A stretch of DNA of 32,000 bases from the NCBI GenBank assembly GCA_030614005.1, contig JAUWKS010000006.1:1-32000 (forward strand), in the 5' to 3' direction. The notes beneath the pieces were generated by a model. The model ran no database searches, was not told where the DNA came from, and was given only the letters and a program-made list of their open reading frames with translations. Source of the stretch: Candidatus Heimdallarchaeota archaeon (GTDB lineage Archaea > Asgardarchaeota > Heimdallarchaeia > JABLTI01). The position numbers and the translations under genes were made by a program. Positions 11,925 to 18,156 of this stretch are shown here, in pieces; positions within the stretch are counted from its first letter, which is position 1; the number at the start of each line of letters is the position of its first letter.

Positions 11925-12347
11925 TTGGTATTTAATTTACATTTCTTCTACTGGCATGAAGTGATGGGTCCTTTATCTTACTCTTCACACGGGAAATTTG
12001 AGATAAGTCAAGAAGATATTTTCATGCTCTTAAGTTCAGTAGAACCTTATACAGCATCAAGTGAATCAACAATCTCTGGACCATATTATATTGAAAAAGA
12101 AGTTATTATGGTCTATAACAGAAGTATAAATTATCCTGAAGCAAATGATGAACGGTTGCGAATTATGGGTACTGATTCTTGGGTAATGATTTCTTGCGAA
12201 GAGAAAAATGAATTAGTTCTTCTTTCTAAAATAGAGATTGCTAAAATGGTTTTAGATATAGAGTTTGGTACCATTGAAGAAATATGTCAATTAACTACCG
12301 AAATGGCTGAACAAGCTACCAGAGCGATTCTAGATATCTATAGTTAA
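11925..12347 (+). CDS. Stand-alone uDENN/longin-like domain protein
   Basis: LHFFYWHEVMGP matches the strand-F/W-x-x-x-x-GP start of uDENN domains; NDERLRIMG...WVMI resembles the D-x-R-x-G loop; about 140 aa; TTG start. Confidence 0.55.
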   Translation: MVFNLHFFYWHEVMGPLSYSSHGKFEISQEDIFMLLSSVEPYTASSESTISGPYYIEKEVIMVYNRSINYPEANDERLRIMGTDSWVMISCEEKNELVLLSKIEIAKMVLDIEFGTIEEICQLTTEMAEQATRAILDIYS

Positions 12348-12527: not shown

Positions 12528-13952
12528 TTGTTCGATTTACTAAGATATGGTATCTCTACTGGAGAAAAGTTAGGTGCAGATTACGTTGAAGCGCGATTCG
12601 ATGACCTACAACTTCGAACTCTAGTAAAAGAGAACCAAAAAATTAAGGAAACAAATCTCAATAGACGTAGAGGACTGGGAATAGTAACCTATTATCAAGG
12701 TGTCCCAGGATACTCCTATACTGCGAGTTTGGAACGAAAGGCAGTAAAAGGATGTGCAAAAAATGCCTTTGGAATTGCAAAAGCTTCAGCTAGCATTGCT
12801 AGTATTAAACTCAATTTTGAACGCAGAGAAAAAACAACGAAAGTACATGATCTAAAATTATCAATCGAAAAACATCCAAAAGATTTTGATTTGGAATATA
12901 AAATTGATTTAATGAATCGCATTGAAACAAGCGCACTTGCTGATGTTGACTGGGTTAAATCATCAAGAGCTTTATATGGCGAATTTTATGGAAATAAATT
13001 TTTTATGAATAGCGATGGAGATGAAATCTCTTGGGAACCATTAGTTATTGATTTAAGAGTAAGTTTAACAGCTGCTGGTTCTGGAGACAATCTCGTAAGT
13101 GGGGGAAATGGAAAAGGAGGTTCAAAGGGATTAGAGCTCTTTGACATTAAGAAAAATACTCCAGAATACTTAGGACAAGAAGTTCATAAATGGACTAATG
13201 AGCAAAGAGAAGCAAAAGCTGCTCCCGCAGGAAAATATAGAGCATTATGTGACAATAACTTAAGTGGAGTATTAGCTCACGAATCCTTTGGTCATTGTAC
13301 AGAGGCAGATTTTATTTTGACAAATAGCTCTGCATTAAAGGACAAAATCGGTGTTCAAATAGGAACAGATATTGTGAATATTTATGATGAAGGAACACCC
13401 GAAGGAGACTACAATAGTTTCTGGTTACCTTATGATGATGAAGGAACTAAAACAACAAAAACTGTCCTTGTAGAAAATGGTTTACTTAAAGGATACCTAC
13501 ACAATAGATCTACAGCAAAAATGCTTGGAGAAGAACCCTCAGGAAATGCCAGAGCAATAAGCTATCGTTTCAATCCAATTCAACGAATGAAAAATACCTA
13601 TTTTGCCCCTGGAGACTTAACAGAGGAAGAAGCTATTGAACAACTTAAAGAAGGCATTTATGCAATCCAAACTTCGGGAGGACAAGTTAACCCAAGTGAT
13701 GGAACATTCCTATTCAAAGCAAGAAGAGGATATTGGGTAGAGAATGGTGAAATAAAATACCCAATTAAAGATGTTACAATCAAAGGAGATATCCTTTCAC
13801 TATTAATGAATGTTGAAGGATTGACAAAAGACTTAGAGATATCTAGTGGGTACTTTGGTGGATGCGGAAAAGGTGGACAATTTCCACTGCCAGTTGGCCT
13901 TGGCTCATCAAAAATCCTTTTCTCTGAGGCTACTTTTGGAGGCGAACAATAA
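12528..13952 (+). CDS. tldD: TldD metalloprotease subunit
   Basis: GADYVEAR, LAHESFGHCTEAD (HExxxH), YDDEG, RMKNTYFAPG, C-terminal CGKGGQ Zn-ligand Cys. Confidence 0.95.
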   Translation: MFDLLRYGISTGEKLGADYVEARFDDLQLRTLVKENQKIKETNLNRRRGLGIVTYYQGVPGYSYTASLERKAVKGCAKNAFGIAKASASIASIKLNFERREKTTKVHDLKLSIEKHPKDFDLEYKIDLMNRIETSALADVDWVKSSRALYGEFYGNKFFMNSDGDEISWEPLVIDLRVSLTAAGSGDNLVSGGNGKGGSKGLELFDIKKNTPEYLGQEVHKWTNEQREAKAAPAGKYRALCDNNLSGVLAHESFGHCTEADFILTNSSALKDKIGVQIGTDIVNIYDEGTPEGDYNSFWLPYDDEGTKTTKTVLVENGLLKGYLHNRSTAKMLGEEPSGNARAISYRFNPIQRMKNTYFAPGDLTEEEAIEQLKEGIYAIQTSGGQVNPSDGTFLFKARRGYWVENGEIKYPIKDVTIKGDILSLLMNVEGLTKDLEISSGYFGGCGKGGQFPLPVGLGSSKILFSEATFGGEQ

Positions 13953-15313
13953 TGAAATTTGATACTTTAAAAGATGATCTTTTAGCCCTTGCTGATACAG
14001 GTCTTAAATATGCTAAAAATCAAGGTGCAGATCAAGCTGAAATCTATGTCAGTAGTATGCACAATATCAATATTAACAACCAATCTGGAATGATTGAAGC
14101 TAAAGATGGCTTAAATGAAGGTATTGGTGTACGTGTTGCTATTGGTAAATGCCTTGGTTTTGCTGCTATGAGCGGTTTAACCGATGATGCGTTAAAACAT
14201 GCTGTCTCTGAAGCATTGTCAGTAGCCAAATCCGTGAAACAAGATAACGAAGGTTTTGACTCATTTGTTTCAAAAGGGAAAGTAGGCAAAGATGGCATTC
14301 TTGATTCCAAAATTGTTGAAATGTCTACTGAAGAGTTAGTTCAAAGTGCTAATTCGATTTATCTAGAAGCTAAGAATTTTGATAAGAGAGTTATCTCTCC
14401 ATCTGCTCAAGTTCAATCATTCTATGGTGGGCATGCGGTAGTAAATTCCGAAGGAGTTGCTGGTGCATCTAAAGCAACAGTATTCGTTATTGTAACTTTT
14501 ACCACTGCTGCAGAAGGCGAGAAGCGCAAGAGTGCTTTTGATTTTAAAGTAACTCGTGAAGTTCCTGAATTTGAAAATATTGGTGCTAAAGCTGCTGAGA
14601 AAGCAGTAAAGCTTCTTGATTCCAAACCTATGGAACATACAGGAGTACTTCCCACTTTGTGGAATCCAAATGTAATGTCTAGTTTCTGGCAAATGTCTCT
14701 TGCCCAATCCATCAATGGTAGACAAGTAGTTGAGAAGAACAGTTATTTCATGGACAAGCTTGGTGACCAAGTTGGCATTGGTAAATTATCAGTAACCGAC
14801 GATGGCCAATTACCTGAAGGTTTGAATACCACAGCCATTGATCATGAAGGTGCTACTCGACAAACTACTCCTATTATTGAGAAAGGAGTTTTGCGTTCCT
14901 TCTTGTACGATAGCTATTATGGAAGATTAGGTAAGGTAAAAAGTACTGGAAATGCTGACAGACGTCAAGGGTATGAAAGTACACCAACCATTTCTTCTTC
15001 AACAGTAGTTATCACTCCTGGAACAAAAAGCTTCGATAAGATGGTCTCTAGCATTGACAAAGGTGTTTATGTTATGGATAATGTTATGGGCATGGGTCAT
15101 TCCAACCTTATTTCTGGTGATTTCTCAGTTGTAGCGACATCCGCTTATCTGATAGAAAAAGGAGAAATTTCTCATCCATTAGAGCCTATAACTATCGCAG
15201 GAAACCTCTACAAGAGCTTTAAAGATATCCAAACAATTGGTTCGGATTCAAAACTCTTACAAGCAGTTAAGACTCCTTCAATGTTATTTGATGGTTTTAC
15301 TGTTGTAGGATAA
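13952..15313 (+). CDS. pmbA: PmbA/TldE non-catalytic subunit
   Basis: GADQAE, GIGVRV, DHEG, GVLRSFLYD, SGDFS, TIAGN; no HExxH; start overlaps the tldD stop (TAATG). Confidence 0.93.
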   Translation: MKFDTLKDDLLALADTGLKYAKNQGADQAEIYVSSMHNININNQSGMIEAKDGLNEGIGVRVAIGKCLGFAAMSGLTDDALKHAVSEALSVAKSVKQDNEGFDSFVSKGKVGKDGILDSKIVEMSTEELVQSANSIYLEAKNFDKRVISPSAQVQSFYGGHAVVNSEGVAGASKATVFVIVTFTTAAEGEKRKSAFDFKVTREVPEFENIGAKAAEKAVKLLDSKPMEHTGVLPTLWNPNVMSSFWQMSLAQSINGRQVVEKNSYFMDKLGDQVGIGKLSVTDDGQLPEGLNTTAIDHEGATRQTTPIIEKGVLRSFLYDSYYGRLGKVKSTGNADRRQGYESTPTISSSTVVITPGTKSFDKMVSSIDKGVYVMDNVMGMGHSNLISGDFSVVATSAYLIEKGEISHPLEPITIAGNLYKSFKDIQTIGSDSKLLQAVKTPSMLFDGFTVVG

Positions 15314-15320
15314 AATGAAA

Positions 15321-15360
15321 CACCTCTGGAAAATTCCGAGGTGAAACCTTATTTTTTTTA
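15321..15360 (+). terminator. Hairpin plus T-tract between convergent genes
   Basis: CACCTC-T-GGAAATTCC-GAGGTG (15321-15342) followed by a T run, 7 nt after the pmbA stop. Confidence 0.55.
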
Positions 15361-16380
15361 TCTTTTGCCGCCACATTTAGAGCATATATGTTCGTATTTT
15401 TCAAATTTCTCATTGCAGAATGGACATTCATAAATGAAGTTGTAGTCTTCCGGTAAATCTTGAGCTGGAGGAATTATTTTACCATTCTCGTCACTAATGG
15501 TGTTTTCATCATTTTCTTCGTCTTTCTCAATAGTGCTATAATCTATTTTACTATATCTTCTTCTAACATAGATAATACTAATTAAGATTAGACTGTAAAT
15601 CCATTGAAAACCAAACGATGCACCAAAACCTACCAAAAAATTCTGAAAGAATGAATAACCAATGGCCATATTTGACTCTTTTAAGGTTGCTGTAAATGCC
15701 ATCACACTTGAAGATGAAACTGATTCTAAAGTTACATTATACTCAATCATAAATCCATGTTTAGCCGAATAAACAAGATAAAAATGTCCATTGAAACTTT
15801 CACCAAAATGTGACTGAGCTACCTTTCCCTGGAAAATATAAACATCTACCCAAGCGCCTTGGAATGGATATTTCGTGTGATGTGTAGAATTTCTTTGTGG
15901 TATTGTTGTGATAGTAGGACTATGAAGATAGAATTCTTGTTGTTCTTTCCAATTGACATTAATCATAGATATTGGAGCAATAATGTCTGCAACTGTTAAA
16001 GTAGCTGCAGTTGAATGACTTCCTGAAGTTCCAAGAGGCAACATTTTCATAGCATCATTTGGATTAATGATTGGTGTTCTAATTCTATGACTACTATCTG
16101 AATAATTTAAAATGAAATTACCATCATTTTGAACTTGATAAACATCAAGATCAAACTCTCTAATATTCCTAAAAGCCACTACTTCGAAACCAACGTAATC
16201 GGTTCCAGTATAGTTAAAATCCCATTTAAAAGCGCTGCCTGCTTTTATGCCCCCTACTACCCTTGCTCCTTGAGTATCTGTTACAAAGGAAATTGTTGTA
16301 CCTACTCCTAAACAAATCAAAATTACCCATGCTGTTCTTATTATCGCTTTATGTCGTTTCATTTCTCCCAAATTCCACAA
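15358..16380 (-). CDS. Membrane-anchored surface protein with C-terminal cytoplasmic Zn ribbon
   Basis: N-terminal hydrophobic helix, beta-rich ectodomain, TM (FLVGFG...IIYV) then RRR, acidic linker, CPFC-x10-CSKC; start could be ATG 16362. Confidence 0.75.
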   Translation of the reverse strand: MWNLGEMKRHKAIIRTAWVILICLGVGTTISFVTDTQGARVVGGIKAGSAFKWDFNYTGTDYVGFEVVAFRNIREFDLDVYQVQNDGNFILNYSDSSHRIRTPIINPNDAMKMLPLGTSGSHSTAATLTVADIIAPISMINVNWKEQQEFYLHSPTITTIPQRNSTHHTKYPFQGAWVDVYIFQGKVAQSHFGESFNGHFYLVYSAKHGFMIEYNVTLESVSSSSVMAFTATLKESNMAIGYSFFQNFLVGFGASFGFQWIYSLILISIIYVRRRYSKIDYSTIEKDEENDENTISDENGKIIPPAQDLPEDYNFIYECPFCNEKFEKYEHICSKCGGKR

Positions 16381-16474
16381 TTTACTAGTTACCTAATAAC
16401 TGATAGAACATTATATATTTTTTTCCTTAACTAAGGGATTTCTTTCTTTACCAAAAAAAAGCTAAGAATTGGAT

Positions 16475-17308
16475 TTATTCTTTCAAATCCATTTCTTTTA
16501 TTAGTTTGTTCATTCCATGAAGATATTTTAAAAGATTGTTTTTAATAGAATGAATATCGCTTTGAATTTCTATAATTTCTGCTTTAATATTTTTAATTTC
16601 CAAATCAATGATCTGTATTTTTTTCTGCAAACCAATTGTACTTATTTCATTTAACTTCTCCACTTCATTCGGAGCCTGGTAAGCTTTCCTAATTTCAGTG
16701 CTTTTCTTTTCTTTTCGTATGTGGAGATCTGCTGCTAATTTCTTAATTTGAGGTGAGTTTTTACCTGCCTCTAAAAGTAACTTTCCGGTTATTTTATTGA
16801 ATAATAGGTCTATATTTTCTCCAGTCAATGCACTGGTGCTAATATGTAAGATGTCATGACCCATCTCCTTTGACAAATTTTTTAGAAAATTTTTGAGATA
16901 ATCATCATCTGTTTTCTTTCTGTCTACCAAATCGTTTTTATTGCCAACAACAACAAATGTTTCAATTGAGCCATTACTATTCCTTTTGACTTCTTTAACC
17001 CACTTTGGCAAGTTTAAAAGTGTTTTATTATCTGTAATATCATAGACCAACATTGCTGCTTGAGATCCTGAGTAAAAGCTTGCACGAACTTTATCGAATT
17101 TTTGCTGCCCAGCGAGATCGAAAATTTGGTATTGAACTGTTAAATTGTCTGACAGTTTTATTCGCTTGGTTGCGAAATCTGCTCCGATAGTATAAATGTA
17201 TTCCTTTATTGTAGTTTCCCCTAAATATTTTCTTCTTATACTTGTCTTACCAACAGCAGGGTCACCAATAATTACAATTTTCCAAACTAATTTTGCCAAC
17301 TTTATCAT
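16475..17308 (-). CDS. Rab-like small GTPase with C-terminal coiled-coil extension
   Basis: G1 GDPAVGKT, G2 T(IGADF), G3 DLAGQ, G4 NKND, G5 SAL; about 95 aa tail with heptad repeat. Confidence 0.93.
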   Translation of the reverse strand: MIKLAKLVWKIVIIGDPAVGKTSIRRKYLGETTIKEYIYTIGADFATKRIKLSDNLTVQYQIFDLAGQQKFDKVRASFYSGSQAAMLVYDITDNKTLLNLPKWVKEVKRNSNGSIETFVVVGNKNDLVDRKKTDDDYLKNFLKNLSKEMGHDILHISTSALTGENIDLLFNKITGKLLLEAGKNSPQIKKLAADLHIRKEKKSTEIRKAYQAPNEVEKLNEISTIGLQKKIQIIDLEIKNIKAEIIEIQSDIHSIKNNLLKYLHGMNKLIKEMDLKE

Positions 17309-17331
17309 TTCCGTTTATTTTTACTATTAAT

Positions 17332-18069
17332 CTATAATTTTAACAATCCTTTGATTTCTTTTAGCTTTTCATTTTTAACTCTAATCTCATTTTTTAATTT
17401 ACTAATTAATTCATTTTGTTCATTTATTGTTGTATTTAAATGGTCTACTTTTTCGCTTAAGTTCTGCAGTCTAGAAATCTTTTCTTCTAAAATACTACTT
17501 AACTGTTCTAGATTAGAATCTGTAGCATTAGAATTTGCACCTGCATTTTGTTCACCTTTTTCAATAAGAGCAATTCTTGCTTCTAAATCTCTAATCATAT
17601 CGTTCTTCTCCTCAAGTTCTTCTTGCTTTTGAACGATTTTATCTTGAAAACTTCTTCCTAATTGATGTTGAACTTCAATGTTTTCTTTATCTTTCTTTCC
17701 AGTCATGCTTCGTAAACGTCTAAAATCTCTATCTCTGATATGTAGTTCTTGTTCAAGGTTGGTTCGTTCTAAACCAAAAGAATGAAGTTTTTCATCAAGT
17801 ACCCCTAATCGGTTTACCAACGCTTCTGTAGATTTTGGATCAAGCTCTTCTTTGTTGTTTTTTGTTTTGGATAATCCATGATACCACTCATAGAATACAT
17901 CTTGTGCTAGTGGATGAAGATTCGACCAATTTGTTACCAGAATTACCCAGAAATGAGCTCCTGGAATGTCTGGGTCTATTCTTTCTGAAGGGGGTTTTAC
18001 ACTTTTAGGATTTCTTCGTTTATAGTTAGGAAGTGAATCCCACAAAGTGGGATTGTTAGATGAATTCAC
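17332..18069 (-). CDS. Coiled-coil protein with aromatic N-terminal head
   Basis: About 165 aa E/K/Q/L-rich heptad region split by EQNAGANSNATDSN; GTG start; ends 23 nt before the GTPase start. Confidence 0.8.
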   Translation of the reverse strand: MNSSNNPTLWDSLPNYKRRNPKSVKPPSERIDPDIPGAHFWVILVTNWSNLHPLAQDVFYEWYHGLSKTKNNKEELDPKSTEALVNRLGVLDEKLHSFGLERTNLEQELHIRDRDFRRLRSMTGKKDKENIEVQHQLGRSFQDKIVQKQEELEEKNDMIRDLEARIALIEKGEQNAGANSNATDSNLEQLSSILEEKISRLQNLSEKVDHLNTTINEQNELISKLKNEIRVKNEKLKEIKGLLKL

Positions 18070-18156
18070 GGTATACTCACTCTTTTTTTCGATATAATTA
18101 GTATTAAGAAGGGATGCTCTTTAAATATTGTTTTGTGTGTAATTCTGAGCACAATT

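Follow-up and report, generated by a model that had tools for sequence, protein, structure and literature searches.

A two-gene unit conserved in Heimdallarchaeia likely pairs a tailed Rab-like GTPase with a dedicated coiled-coil partner

Dozens of Ras-superfamily GTPases are encoded in Asgard archaea and, to our knowledge, almost none of them has an assigned partner. The coiled-coil Rab partners of eukaryotes (Rab11-FIP, RILP, golgins and EEA1, and the guanine nucleotide exchange factor (GEF) Sec2/Rabin8) recognise a Rab-type switch through a dimeric coiled coil. The subject of this report is a pair of adjacent minus-strand genes within positions 1 to 32,000 of contig JAUWKS010000006.1 (Candidatus Heimdallarchaeota archaeon, assembly GCA_030614005.1), a stretch of 32,000 nucleotides (nt) hereafter called the window. 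The genes encode a coiled-coil protein, P0001, and a Rab-like small GTPase, P0002, and sequence comparisons indicate that they probably form a conserved two-gene unit, a cognate GTPase-partner module.

The closest described prokaryotic analogue of this pairing is the bacterial Group 1 Rup, in which a Ras/Rab-like GTPase is co-encoded with a predicted cytoplasmic coiled-coil protein (Wuichet & Sogaard-Andersen 2014, PMC4316618). The Rup1 GTPases lack the G3 glutamine and lie in a four-gene neighbourhood that includes an OmpA-anchored membrane protein together with a kinase or diguanylate cyclase (PMC4316618). The unit in the window has Gln68, two genes and a partner with a distinct head domain, its neighbours being TatD, GNAT and a transmembrane/Zn-ribbon protein, and it falls outside Group 1 Rup. 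In MglA/MglB, too, a small GTPase of prokaryotes is encoded together with its own dedicated partner; however, P0001 has no Robl_LC7 match at E<=1 and is not a Roadblock/LC7 protein, and P0002 is Rab-like with a canonical G3 motif (DxxGQ). Among the Rab-like (RasL) GTPases of Asgard archaea, the Thorarchaeota Rab 7EZB resembles P0002 in its G domain (E 5e-30) and intact G motifs, and Asgard Rabs lack C-terminal prenylation cysteines, as does P0002 (Tran et al. 2024, PMC10933270). P0002 differs from 7EZB in a 95-residue extension with a coiled coil and in the dedicated partner gene upstream. The GTPase genes of MK-D1 generally do not share operons with regulators, so that their partners are difficult to identify (PMC10933270).

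The two genes are read as a cognate module because their order is both conserved and recurrent. In f1, the family of the window genome (Heimdallarchaeial families are numbered f1 to f7 here), 10 of the 11 other genomes yielded the coiled-coil gene, and in each of these the GTPase gene follows it directly on the same strand; in the eleventh, the GTPase gene is located at a contig end. The window genome has a second pair on contig C30, where a paralogue of P0001 of 281 amino acids (aa) is encoded divergently from a 412-aa Rab-like GTPase that comprises a G domain, a coiled coil, an acidic stretch and a C-terminal CPKC...CYRC zinc ribbon, and the same divergent arrangement occurs in genomes G003, G004 and G008 and in NCBI record JBQSAS010000173. 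In f2, to which Ca. Heimdallarchaeum aukensis belongs by source name, P0002 is best matched by a Rab-like GTPase of 242-272 aa that carries a coiled-coil tail. In 16 of 17 genomes a gene for a coiled-coil protein of 226-241 aa precedes this GTPase gene by 6-19 nt; in the seventeenth the two genes are 2.1 kb apart, and the 452-aa minus-strand open reading frame (ORF) that intervenes may be an insertion. The f2 flanks are unlike those of f1, with a small ORF upstream and a convergent gene for a membrane protein with zinc ribbons downstream. The tightest pairing is found in f6, where the gene for a 351-357-aa homologue overlaps that of a 297-302-aa tailed GTPase by 4 nt (2/2 genomes). Pfam Ras matches number 40 in the 3.6 Mb of the window genome, from which a Ras-family neighbour would be expected by chance for about 2-3% of random genes (a rough estimate). 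The pairs in the different families may have co-diverged or may have formed repeatedly, and either history would favour functional coupling.

By profile comparison, the f1 and f2 partners belong to one superfamily, for which the name "HPL-head" is used here. The f2 partner is ~15-20% identical to P0001 and lacks the hinge and second coil, and its homology to the f1 partner required profile-profile comparison through an intermediate family. The hhalign comparison of f1 with f2 partners (A1 vs A2) gave 78%, with the head and the VQ..LG.SFQ.KI motif aligned, and comparison via f4/f5/f6 intermediates gave 95.7% (E 9e-9) over the head for A1 vs A5 and 99.9% for A2 vs A5. In a cross-family alignment of f1, the f1 paralogue, f2, f4, f5 and f6, W48 and P53 never vary and Y16 and H52 hardly do. 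P0001 carries the HPL-head signature, (S/T)L(W/Y)..P.Y ... W-x3-H-P-(L/M), and the helical motif Q..(L/V)(G/S).(S/T)F(Q/M).K, which in P0001 is VQHQLGRSFQDKI and is aligned with TQAEVGETFQKKL in f2, IQAELSQSFMEKI in f4-f6 and VQTGISKNFQQQI in the f1 paralogue. All parts of the superfamily keep the head and the Q..LG.SFQ.K helix, and the hinge and second coil are f1-specific additions, since the f2 proteins end soon past the motif. The partner family is present in all 33 sampled genomes of f1, f2, f4, f5 and f6, and was not found in f3 (0/22 and 0/10), in f7 (0/2) or in other Asgard families outside Heimdallarchaeia (about 156 genomes). A HMMER profile (A4) of the head and the "CC1" helices that follow it gave only 3 matches among 1.84 billion representatives, all of the same family, and no eukaryotic homologue. 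This restriction to Heimdallarchaeia, together with the lack of a detectable eukaryotic counterpart, suggests that the partner family is a Heimdallarchaeial invention.

Residues 1-75 of P0001 contain 4 Trp, 3 Tyr and 8 Pro (20%), compared with 0, 0 and 1 in the other 170 residues. The AlphaFold2 (AF2) model of the protein has helices at residues 81-123, 127-174 and 182-244 with a mean pLDDT of 77 and low confidence at the hinge, and a strict heptad test identified residues 142-172 and 181-245 (96 residues), which was matched by none of 200 shuffles. The head modelled alone by AF2 from the cross-family alignment is a compact four-helix piece (pLDDT 80.5, pTM 0.67). P0001 has 55 close homologues (identity at least 46%), which come from Heimdallarchaeota, Gerdarchaeota or "Asgard group" bins. 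Conservation is strong over residues 9-65 of the head and 77-165 of CC1, with a mean column identity of 74% and 56 invariant columns, and the invariant motifs of CC1 are LER.NLE.EL.IRDRDF..LR and VQ..LG.SFQ.KI. The last coil is moderately conserved among orthologues, and the head/CC1 part and the switch regions of the GTPase are far better conserved than the coils and linkers. The hinge is the only part whose sequence and length (from 0 to over 20 residues) vary freely among orthologues. It has a pLDDT below 50 and is a real flexible linker.

No Pfam or NCBIfam family matched P0001 above its cut-off. The NCBIfam SMC/Rad50 models scored 25 bits against cut-offs above 500, covered the coiled coil only and were dismissed as coiled-coil noise; homologues are labelled "hypothetical" or, wrongly and probably because of the coiled coil, "chromosome segregation ATPase". 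The full-length model had no relative in the PDB (best E 1.9), and the head-only model had no structural relative among PDB representatives (best Z 3.3) and its own orthologue as the sole match among AFDB clusters. A resemblance of the head to an unrelated DUF1289 cluster in the ESM Atlas (TM-score 0.54 over 62 residues) is not meaningful because the piece is so short and helical, and language-model look-alikes of P0001, generic coiled-coil proteins (HOOK, GOLGA2, HMMR) that scored at most 0.85, were set aside as resembling it in composition. P0001 has no transmembrane segment and no Cys, and its maximum 19-residue hydropathy is 0.63. No description of the partner family was found in the literature by a search that was incomplete and does not prove novelty.

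P0002 matches Pfam Ras at 1.9e-36 over residues 10-176 (125.5 bits, cut-off 21.6). Its best solved relative is 7EZB, followed by Rab11, Rab1B and Ypt7, and its orthologues are named "Rab family GTPase" or "GTP-binding protein" at NCBI. Across 26 orthologues the P-loop GDPAVGKT, T40 and switch I (YIYTIGADFATK), DLAGQ68, NKxD (NKND in P0002) and SAL are invariant, and from these motifs P0002 should bind and hydrolyse GTP. In every f1 orthologue the P-loop (window 17250-17290) has Pro where Ras has Gly12, unlike in the paired GTPases of f2, f4 and f6, which read GDGAVGKT. Beyond residue 180, P0002 continues with a variable basic linker and a helix of ~60 residues with Ile/Leu heptads. It is free of cysteine, ends in ...EMDLKE and lacks a prenylation motif (CC, CXC or CAAX), so that it is Rab-like yet lies outside the true Rabs in this respect. 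The RabF motifs were judged by eye: IGADF and LVYDIT fit RabF1 and RabF5, and QYQIF, KFDKVR and FYSGS diverge.

P0001 begins at the first start codon of its open frame, a GTG, with which the ATG of its closest relative and the N-termini of 23 orthologues, MN(S/P), are aligned. The TTTAAA upstream of P0001 is a candidate promoter, an (A/T)ATTTAAAGA-type element lies at an equal distance upstream of P0001 orthologues in the other loci examined, and the position of the Shine-Dalgarno-like motif is taken by GGTGA or GAGTGAG in orthologous loci. T-runs follow the GTPase stop codon in most orthologous loci, and the T8 run past P0002 is weak evidence of a terminator because the genome is AT-rich. The gene downstream of P0002 has its own ATATATAA box. 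This layout fits a bicistronic unit, and co-transcription is plausible. A preliminary description of this DNA had placed the coiled-coil gene 23 nt before the GTPase on the same strand, a TTTAAA box upstream of both, a flexible hinge and a ~75-aa Trp/Tyr/Pro-rich head in the first protein, and a Rab-like GTPase in second position, all of which the present analysis bears out; of the ~165 aa of heptads that it described, ~165 residues are helical, in three segments, but clean heptads occupy only ~96. The neighbourhood conservation that it had proposed as a check was also found, with order, strand and adjacency kept in every assessable f1 genome and in further families. The features of the unit and the loci used for comparison are listed in Table 1.

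Table 1 Coordinates of the two-gene unit, its signals and neighbours in the window, and of compared loci
Feature	Position	Strand	Remarks
TATA-box-like TTTAAA	18120..18125	minus	~50 nt upstream of P0001 start; candidate promoter
Shine-Dalgarno-like AGAGTGAG	18076..18083	minus	6 nt 5' of P0001 GTG
P0001 gene, 245-aa head and coiled-coil protein	17332..18069	minus	GTG start; Heimdallarchaeia-only family without Pfam model
P0001 head, aa 1-75	17845..18069	minus	Small helical domain; superfamily signature (S/T)LW..P.Y ... W-x3-H-P-L
P0001 "CC1" helices, aa 81-123 and 127-174	17548..17829	minus	Most conserved part
P0001 flexible hinge EQNAGANSNATDSN, aa 173-186	17512..17553	minus	From orthologue alignment and pLDDT below 50
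P0001 "CC2" C-terminal coiled coil, aa 187-245	17335..17511	minus	Clean heptads
Intergenic spacer, 23 nt	17309..17331	minus	15-35 nt in orthologous loci
P0002 gene, 277-aa Rab-like small GTPase	16475..17308	minus	ATG start; Pfam Ras, PDB relatives
P0002 G domain, aa 8-180	16769..17287	minus	Intact G1-G5: GDPAVGKT, T40, DLAGQ, NKND, SAL
P0002 variable basic linker, aa 181-217	16658..16768	minus	From orthologue alignment
P0002 C-terminal coiled-coil tail, aa 218-277	16478..16657	minus	Ile/Leu heptads; no Cys, no prenylation site
T8 run, candidate archaeal terminator	16453..16460	minus	15 nt past P0002 stop codon
340-aa transmembrane/Zn-ribbon protein gene	15358-16380	minus	Downstream of pair
Tandem PmbA/TldD-type metallopeptidase genes	12528-15313	plus	Stop and start overlapping
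140-aa longin/uDENN-like gene	11925-12347	plus	
C30 pair, GTPase	L071:21-1259	minus	
C30 pair, P0001 paralogue	L071:1495-2340	plus	Radical-SAM gene adjoins
Split f2 pair (L038 / L055)	G044:C21:7365-10896		Intervening 452-aa ORF
f6 overlapping pairs	L083:1792-3755 (G036:C265); L084:1304-3264 (G201:C95)		
f4 HhH_5/L35Ae-like loci	L064:2843-3925; L066:2661-3848; L089:2880-3998		
f4 205-218-aa protein loci	L032:728-1345; L033:372-998; L035:762-1418; L036:790-1407		

In the mechanism proposed for the unit, both genes would be expressed from one transcript, and P0001 would oligomerise through its heptad helices and present an invariant surface formed by the head and CC1. P0002, with its intact catalytic motifs and nearly invariant switch regions, would dock on this surface in a nucleotide-dependent manner, its coiled-coil tail taking the place of a lipid anchor and conferring multivalency. 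The cycle of GTP binding and hydrolysis would in this way control whether a soluble coiled-coil scaffold is assembled or disassembled somewhere in the cell. The contact is expected between the G domain and the head/CC1 part, with the coils serving oligomerisation, because the head and helix are retained, the switch regions are invariant and, in the tails, nothing beyond the heptad pattern is kept. The gene structure, the family of the GTPase, the conserved and recurrent pairing and the taxonomic restriction of the partner are established by the comparisons, and we infer from them that the genes are co-transcribed and the proteins bind in a nucleotide-dependent manner to serve some cellular process. 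A 1:1 complex prediction with full-length P0002 (A3), GTP, Mg and full-length P0001 (A1) scored 0.02 against a mark of 0.32, which speaks neither for nor against binding.

Several observations weigh against a cognate module. The genus-level surroundings of the f1 pair are syntenic upstream (TatD, GNAT and DegT, with a TatD-type hydrolase gene always directly upstream), which makes adjacency in close relatives weak evidence when taken alone; the downstream side is variable and holds the transmembrane/Zn-ribbon gene, PmbA genes or a longin-like gene. The f4 coiled-coil gene stands apart from GTPase genes, none of which lies within about 4 kb of it in L064 and L066. In all three genomes examined for this it is followed by a gene whose product, of 360-395 aa, has an HhH_5 domain at its N-terminus and an L35Ae-like domain at its C-terminus, which could hint at a nucleic-acid-related role of the coiled-coil family in that lineage. 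For f5 and one of the f6 loci, the distance from the coiled-coil gene to the nearest GTPase is 1.5-2.6 kb. The f1 clade is on a long branch (1.11) in the G-domain tree, where deep support is 39-93, and orthology of the f1 and f2 GTPases is not demonstrated. An AT-rich TATA-like sequence overlaps the P0001 stop codon and might act as an internal promoter giving a leaderless GTPase mRNA. The unlinked f4 homologue beside its HhH_5/L35Ae-like gene, the constant TatD-type neighbour in f1 and the "chromosome segregation ATPase" label of some sources would suit a P0001 that does not interact directly with the GTPase, being instead a cytoskeletal, chromosome-associated or other independent structural protein whose position reflects inherited synteny or co-regulation. 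We consider this unlikely. Adjacency is seen in four arrangements (f1 co-directional, f1 divergent paralogue, f2 co-directional and f6 overlapping) with differing flanks and between-family protein identity as low as about 20%, a recurrence that would hardly be expected unless linkage were selected for, and the SMC/Rad50 matches are far below cut-off and limited to the coiled coil.

The gene pairing would equally be expected if P0001 were a regulator of P0002 and not an effector or scaffold, either a Sec2/Rabin8-like coiled-coil GEF that grips the switch regions as a parallel dimer or a GTPase-activating protein (GAP) that supplies a residue in trans. Coiled-coil GEFs are known in eukaryotes (Sec2p), and the conserved helix of P0001 has invariant Arg, Asp, Asn and Gln (IRDRDF..LR, LG.SFQ.K) beyond the needs of a purely structural coil. 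However, P0001 has no sequence similarity to Sec2 or to any GEF or GAP family, and a trans-acting catalytic residue is not required because P0002 keeps its own Gln68, and a regulatory role appears quite improbable. The preliminary description had proposed a cognate GTPase-effector module, possibly acting on membranes and comparable to a Rab with a golgin- or EEA1-type tether. The first part of that proposal stands insofar as the genes behave as a unit by their conserved and recurrent adjacency; the membrane and tether parts are not supported. Golgin and EEA1 tethers have coiled coils of hundreds to thousands of residues and a membrane anchor (transmembrane segment, GRIP, FYVE or ALPS), whereas P0001 has ~165 helical residues of 245, no detected anchor, no lipid-binding or other Pfam domain and no eukaryotic relative. 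It is much shorter than the eukaryotic coiled-coil Rab partners in general, lacks a membrane-targeting domain and has no detected sequence or fold similarity to them. An archaeal forerunner of a Rab/tether pair acting on membranes would agree with the Rab-like character of P0002, the flexible hinge between the helical segments of P0001 and the membrane proteins with cytosolic zinc ribbons that flank the f1 and f2 pairs, but neither protein has a transmembrane segment, an amphipathic lipid-binding element, a Cys or a known membrane-targeting domain. The hinge and second coil, moreover, are missing altogether from the f2 homologues, and the taxonomic range of the partner family, with no homologue found in eukaryotes among 1.84 billion representatives, in f3 or in the ~156 Asgard genomes sampled outside the class, makes this reading very improbable.

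The 340-aa protein encoded downstream of the pair in the window has an N-terminal anchor, an extracytoplasmic domain, a second transmembrane helix and a cytosolic acidic tail that ends in a CPFC...CSKC zinc ribbon. Its gene is found once or twice past the pair in G010 and G009 and is absent in G005, G006 and G007. The membrane protein that flanks the f2 pairs is multi-pass with zinc ribbons at both ends and is unrelated to the 340-aa protein; homology of the two was considered and rejected, the zinc ribbon being the only matching part. The longin/uDENN-like gene lies within about 5 kb of the pair in 5/5 genus-level relatives checked and is directly convergent to the GTPase gene in G007, and its protein has no Pfam match at E<=0.01. 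The PmbA/TldD-type tandem genes are kept near the pair in most genus relatives and are missing from G007. The tailed Rab-like GTPase of f4 is preceded by the gene for a conserved 205-218-aa protein without a Pfam family, which may be a different partner.

The pair described here likely adds to the small GTPases of prokaryotes that are encoded together with a partner of their own, as judged from gene order and sequence conservation, and a Rab/tether system on membranes is not supported. Gene order does point to a partner in this case, one protein family being repeatedly wedded to tailed Rab-like GTPases in several Heimdallarchaeial families. A broader and more tentative possibility is that HPL-head proteins are class-specific partners of tailed Rab-like GTPases, and that paralogous pairs, at least two per genome here, form lipid-anchor-independent switches in which coiled-coil assemblies replace prenyl anchors and long tethers; such specificity would be parallel to that of Rabs and their effectors, not ancestral to it. 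Because the partner has no eukaryotic homologue, the system bears more on the cell biology of Heimdallarchaeia than on the ancestry of eukaryotic tethers. The pairs are small, soluble and defined, and one genome holds at least two that are paralogous; they offer a testable system for asking whether paralogous GTPases of the closest archaeal relatives of eukaryotes already had specific partners.

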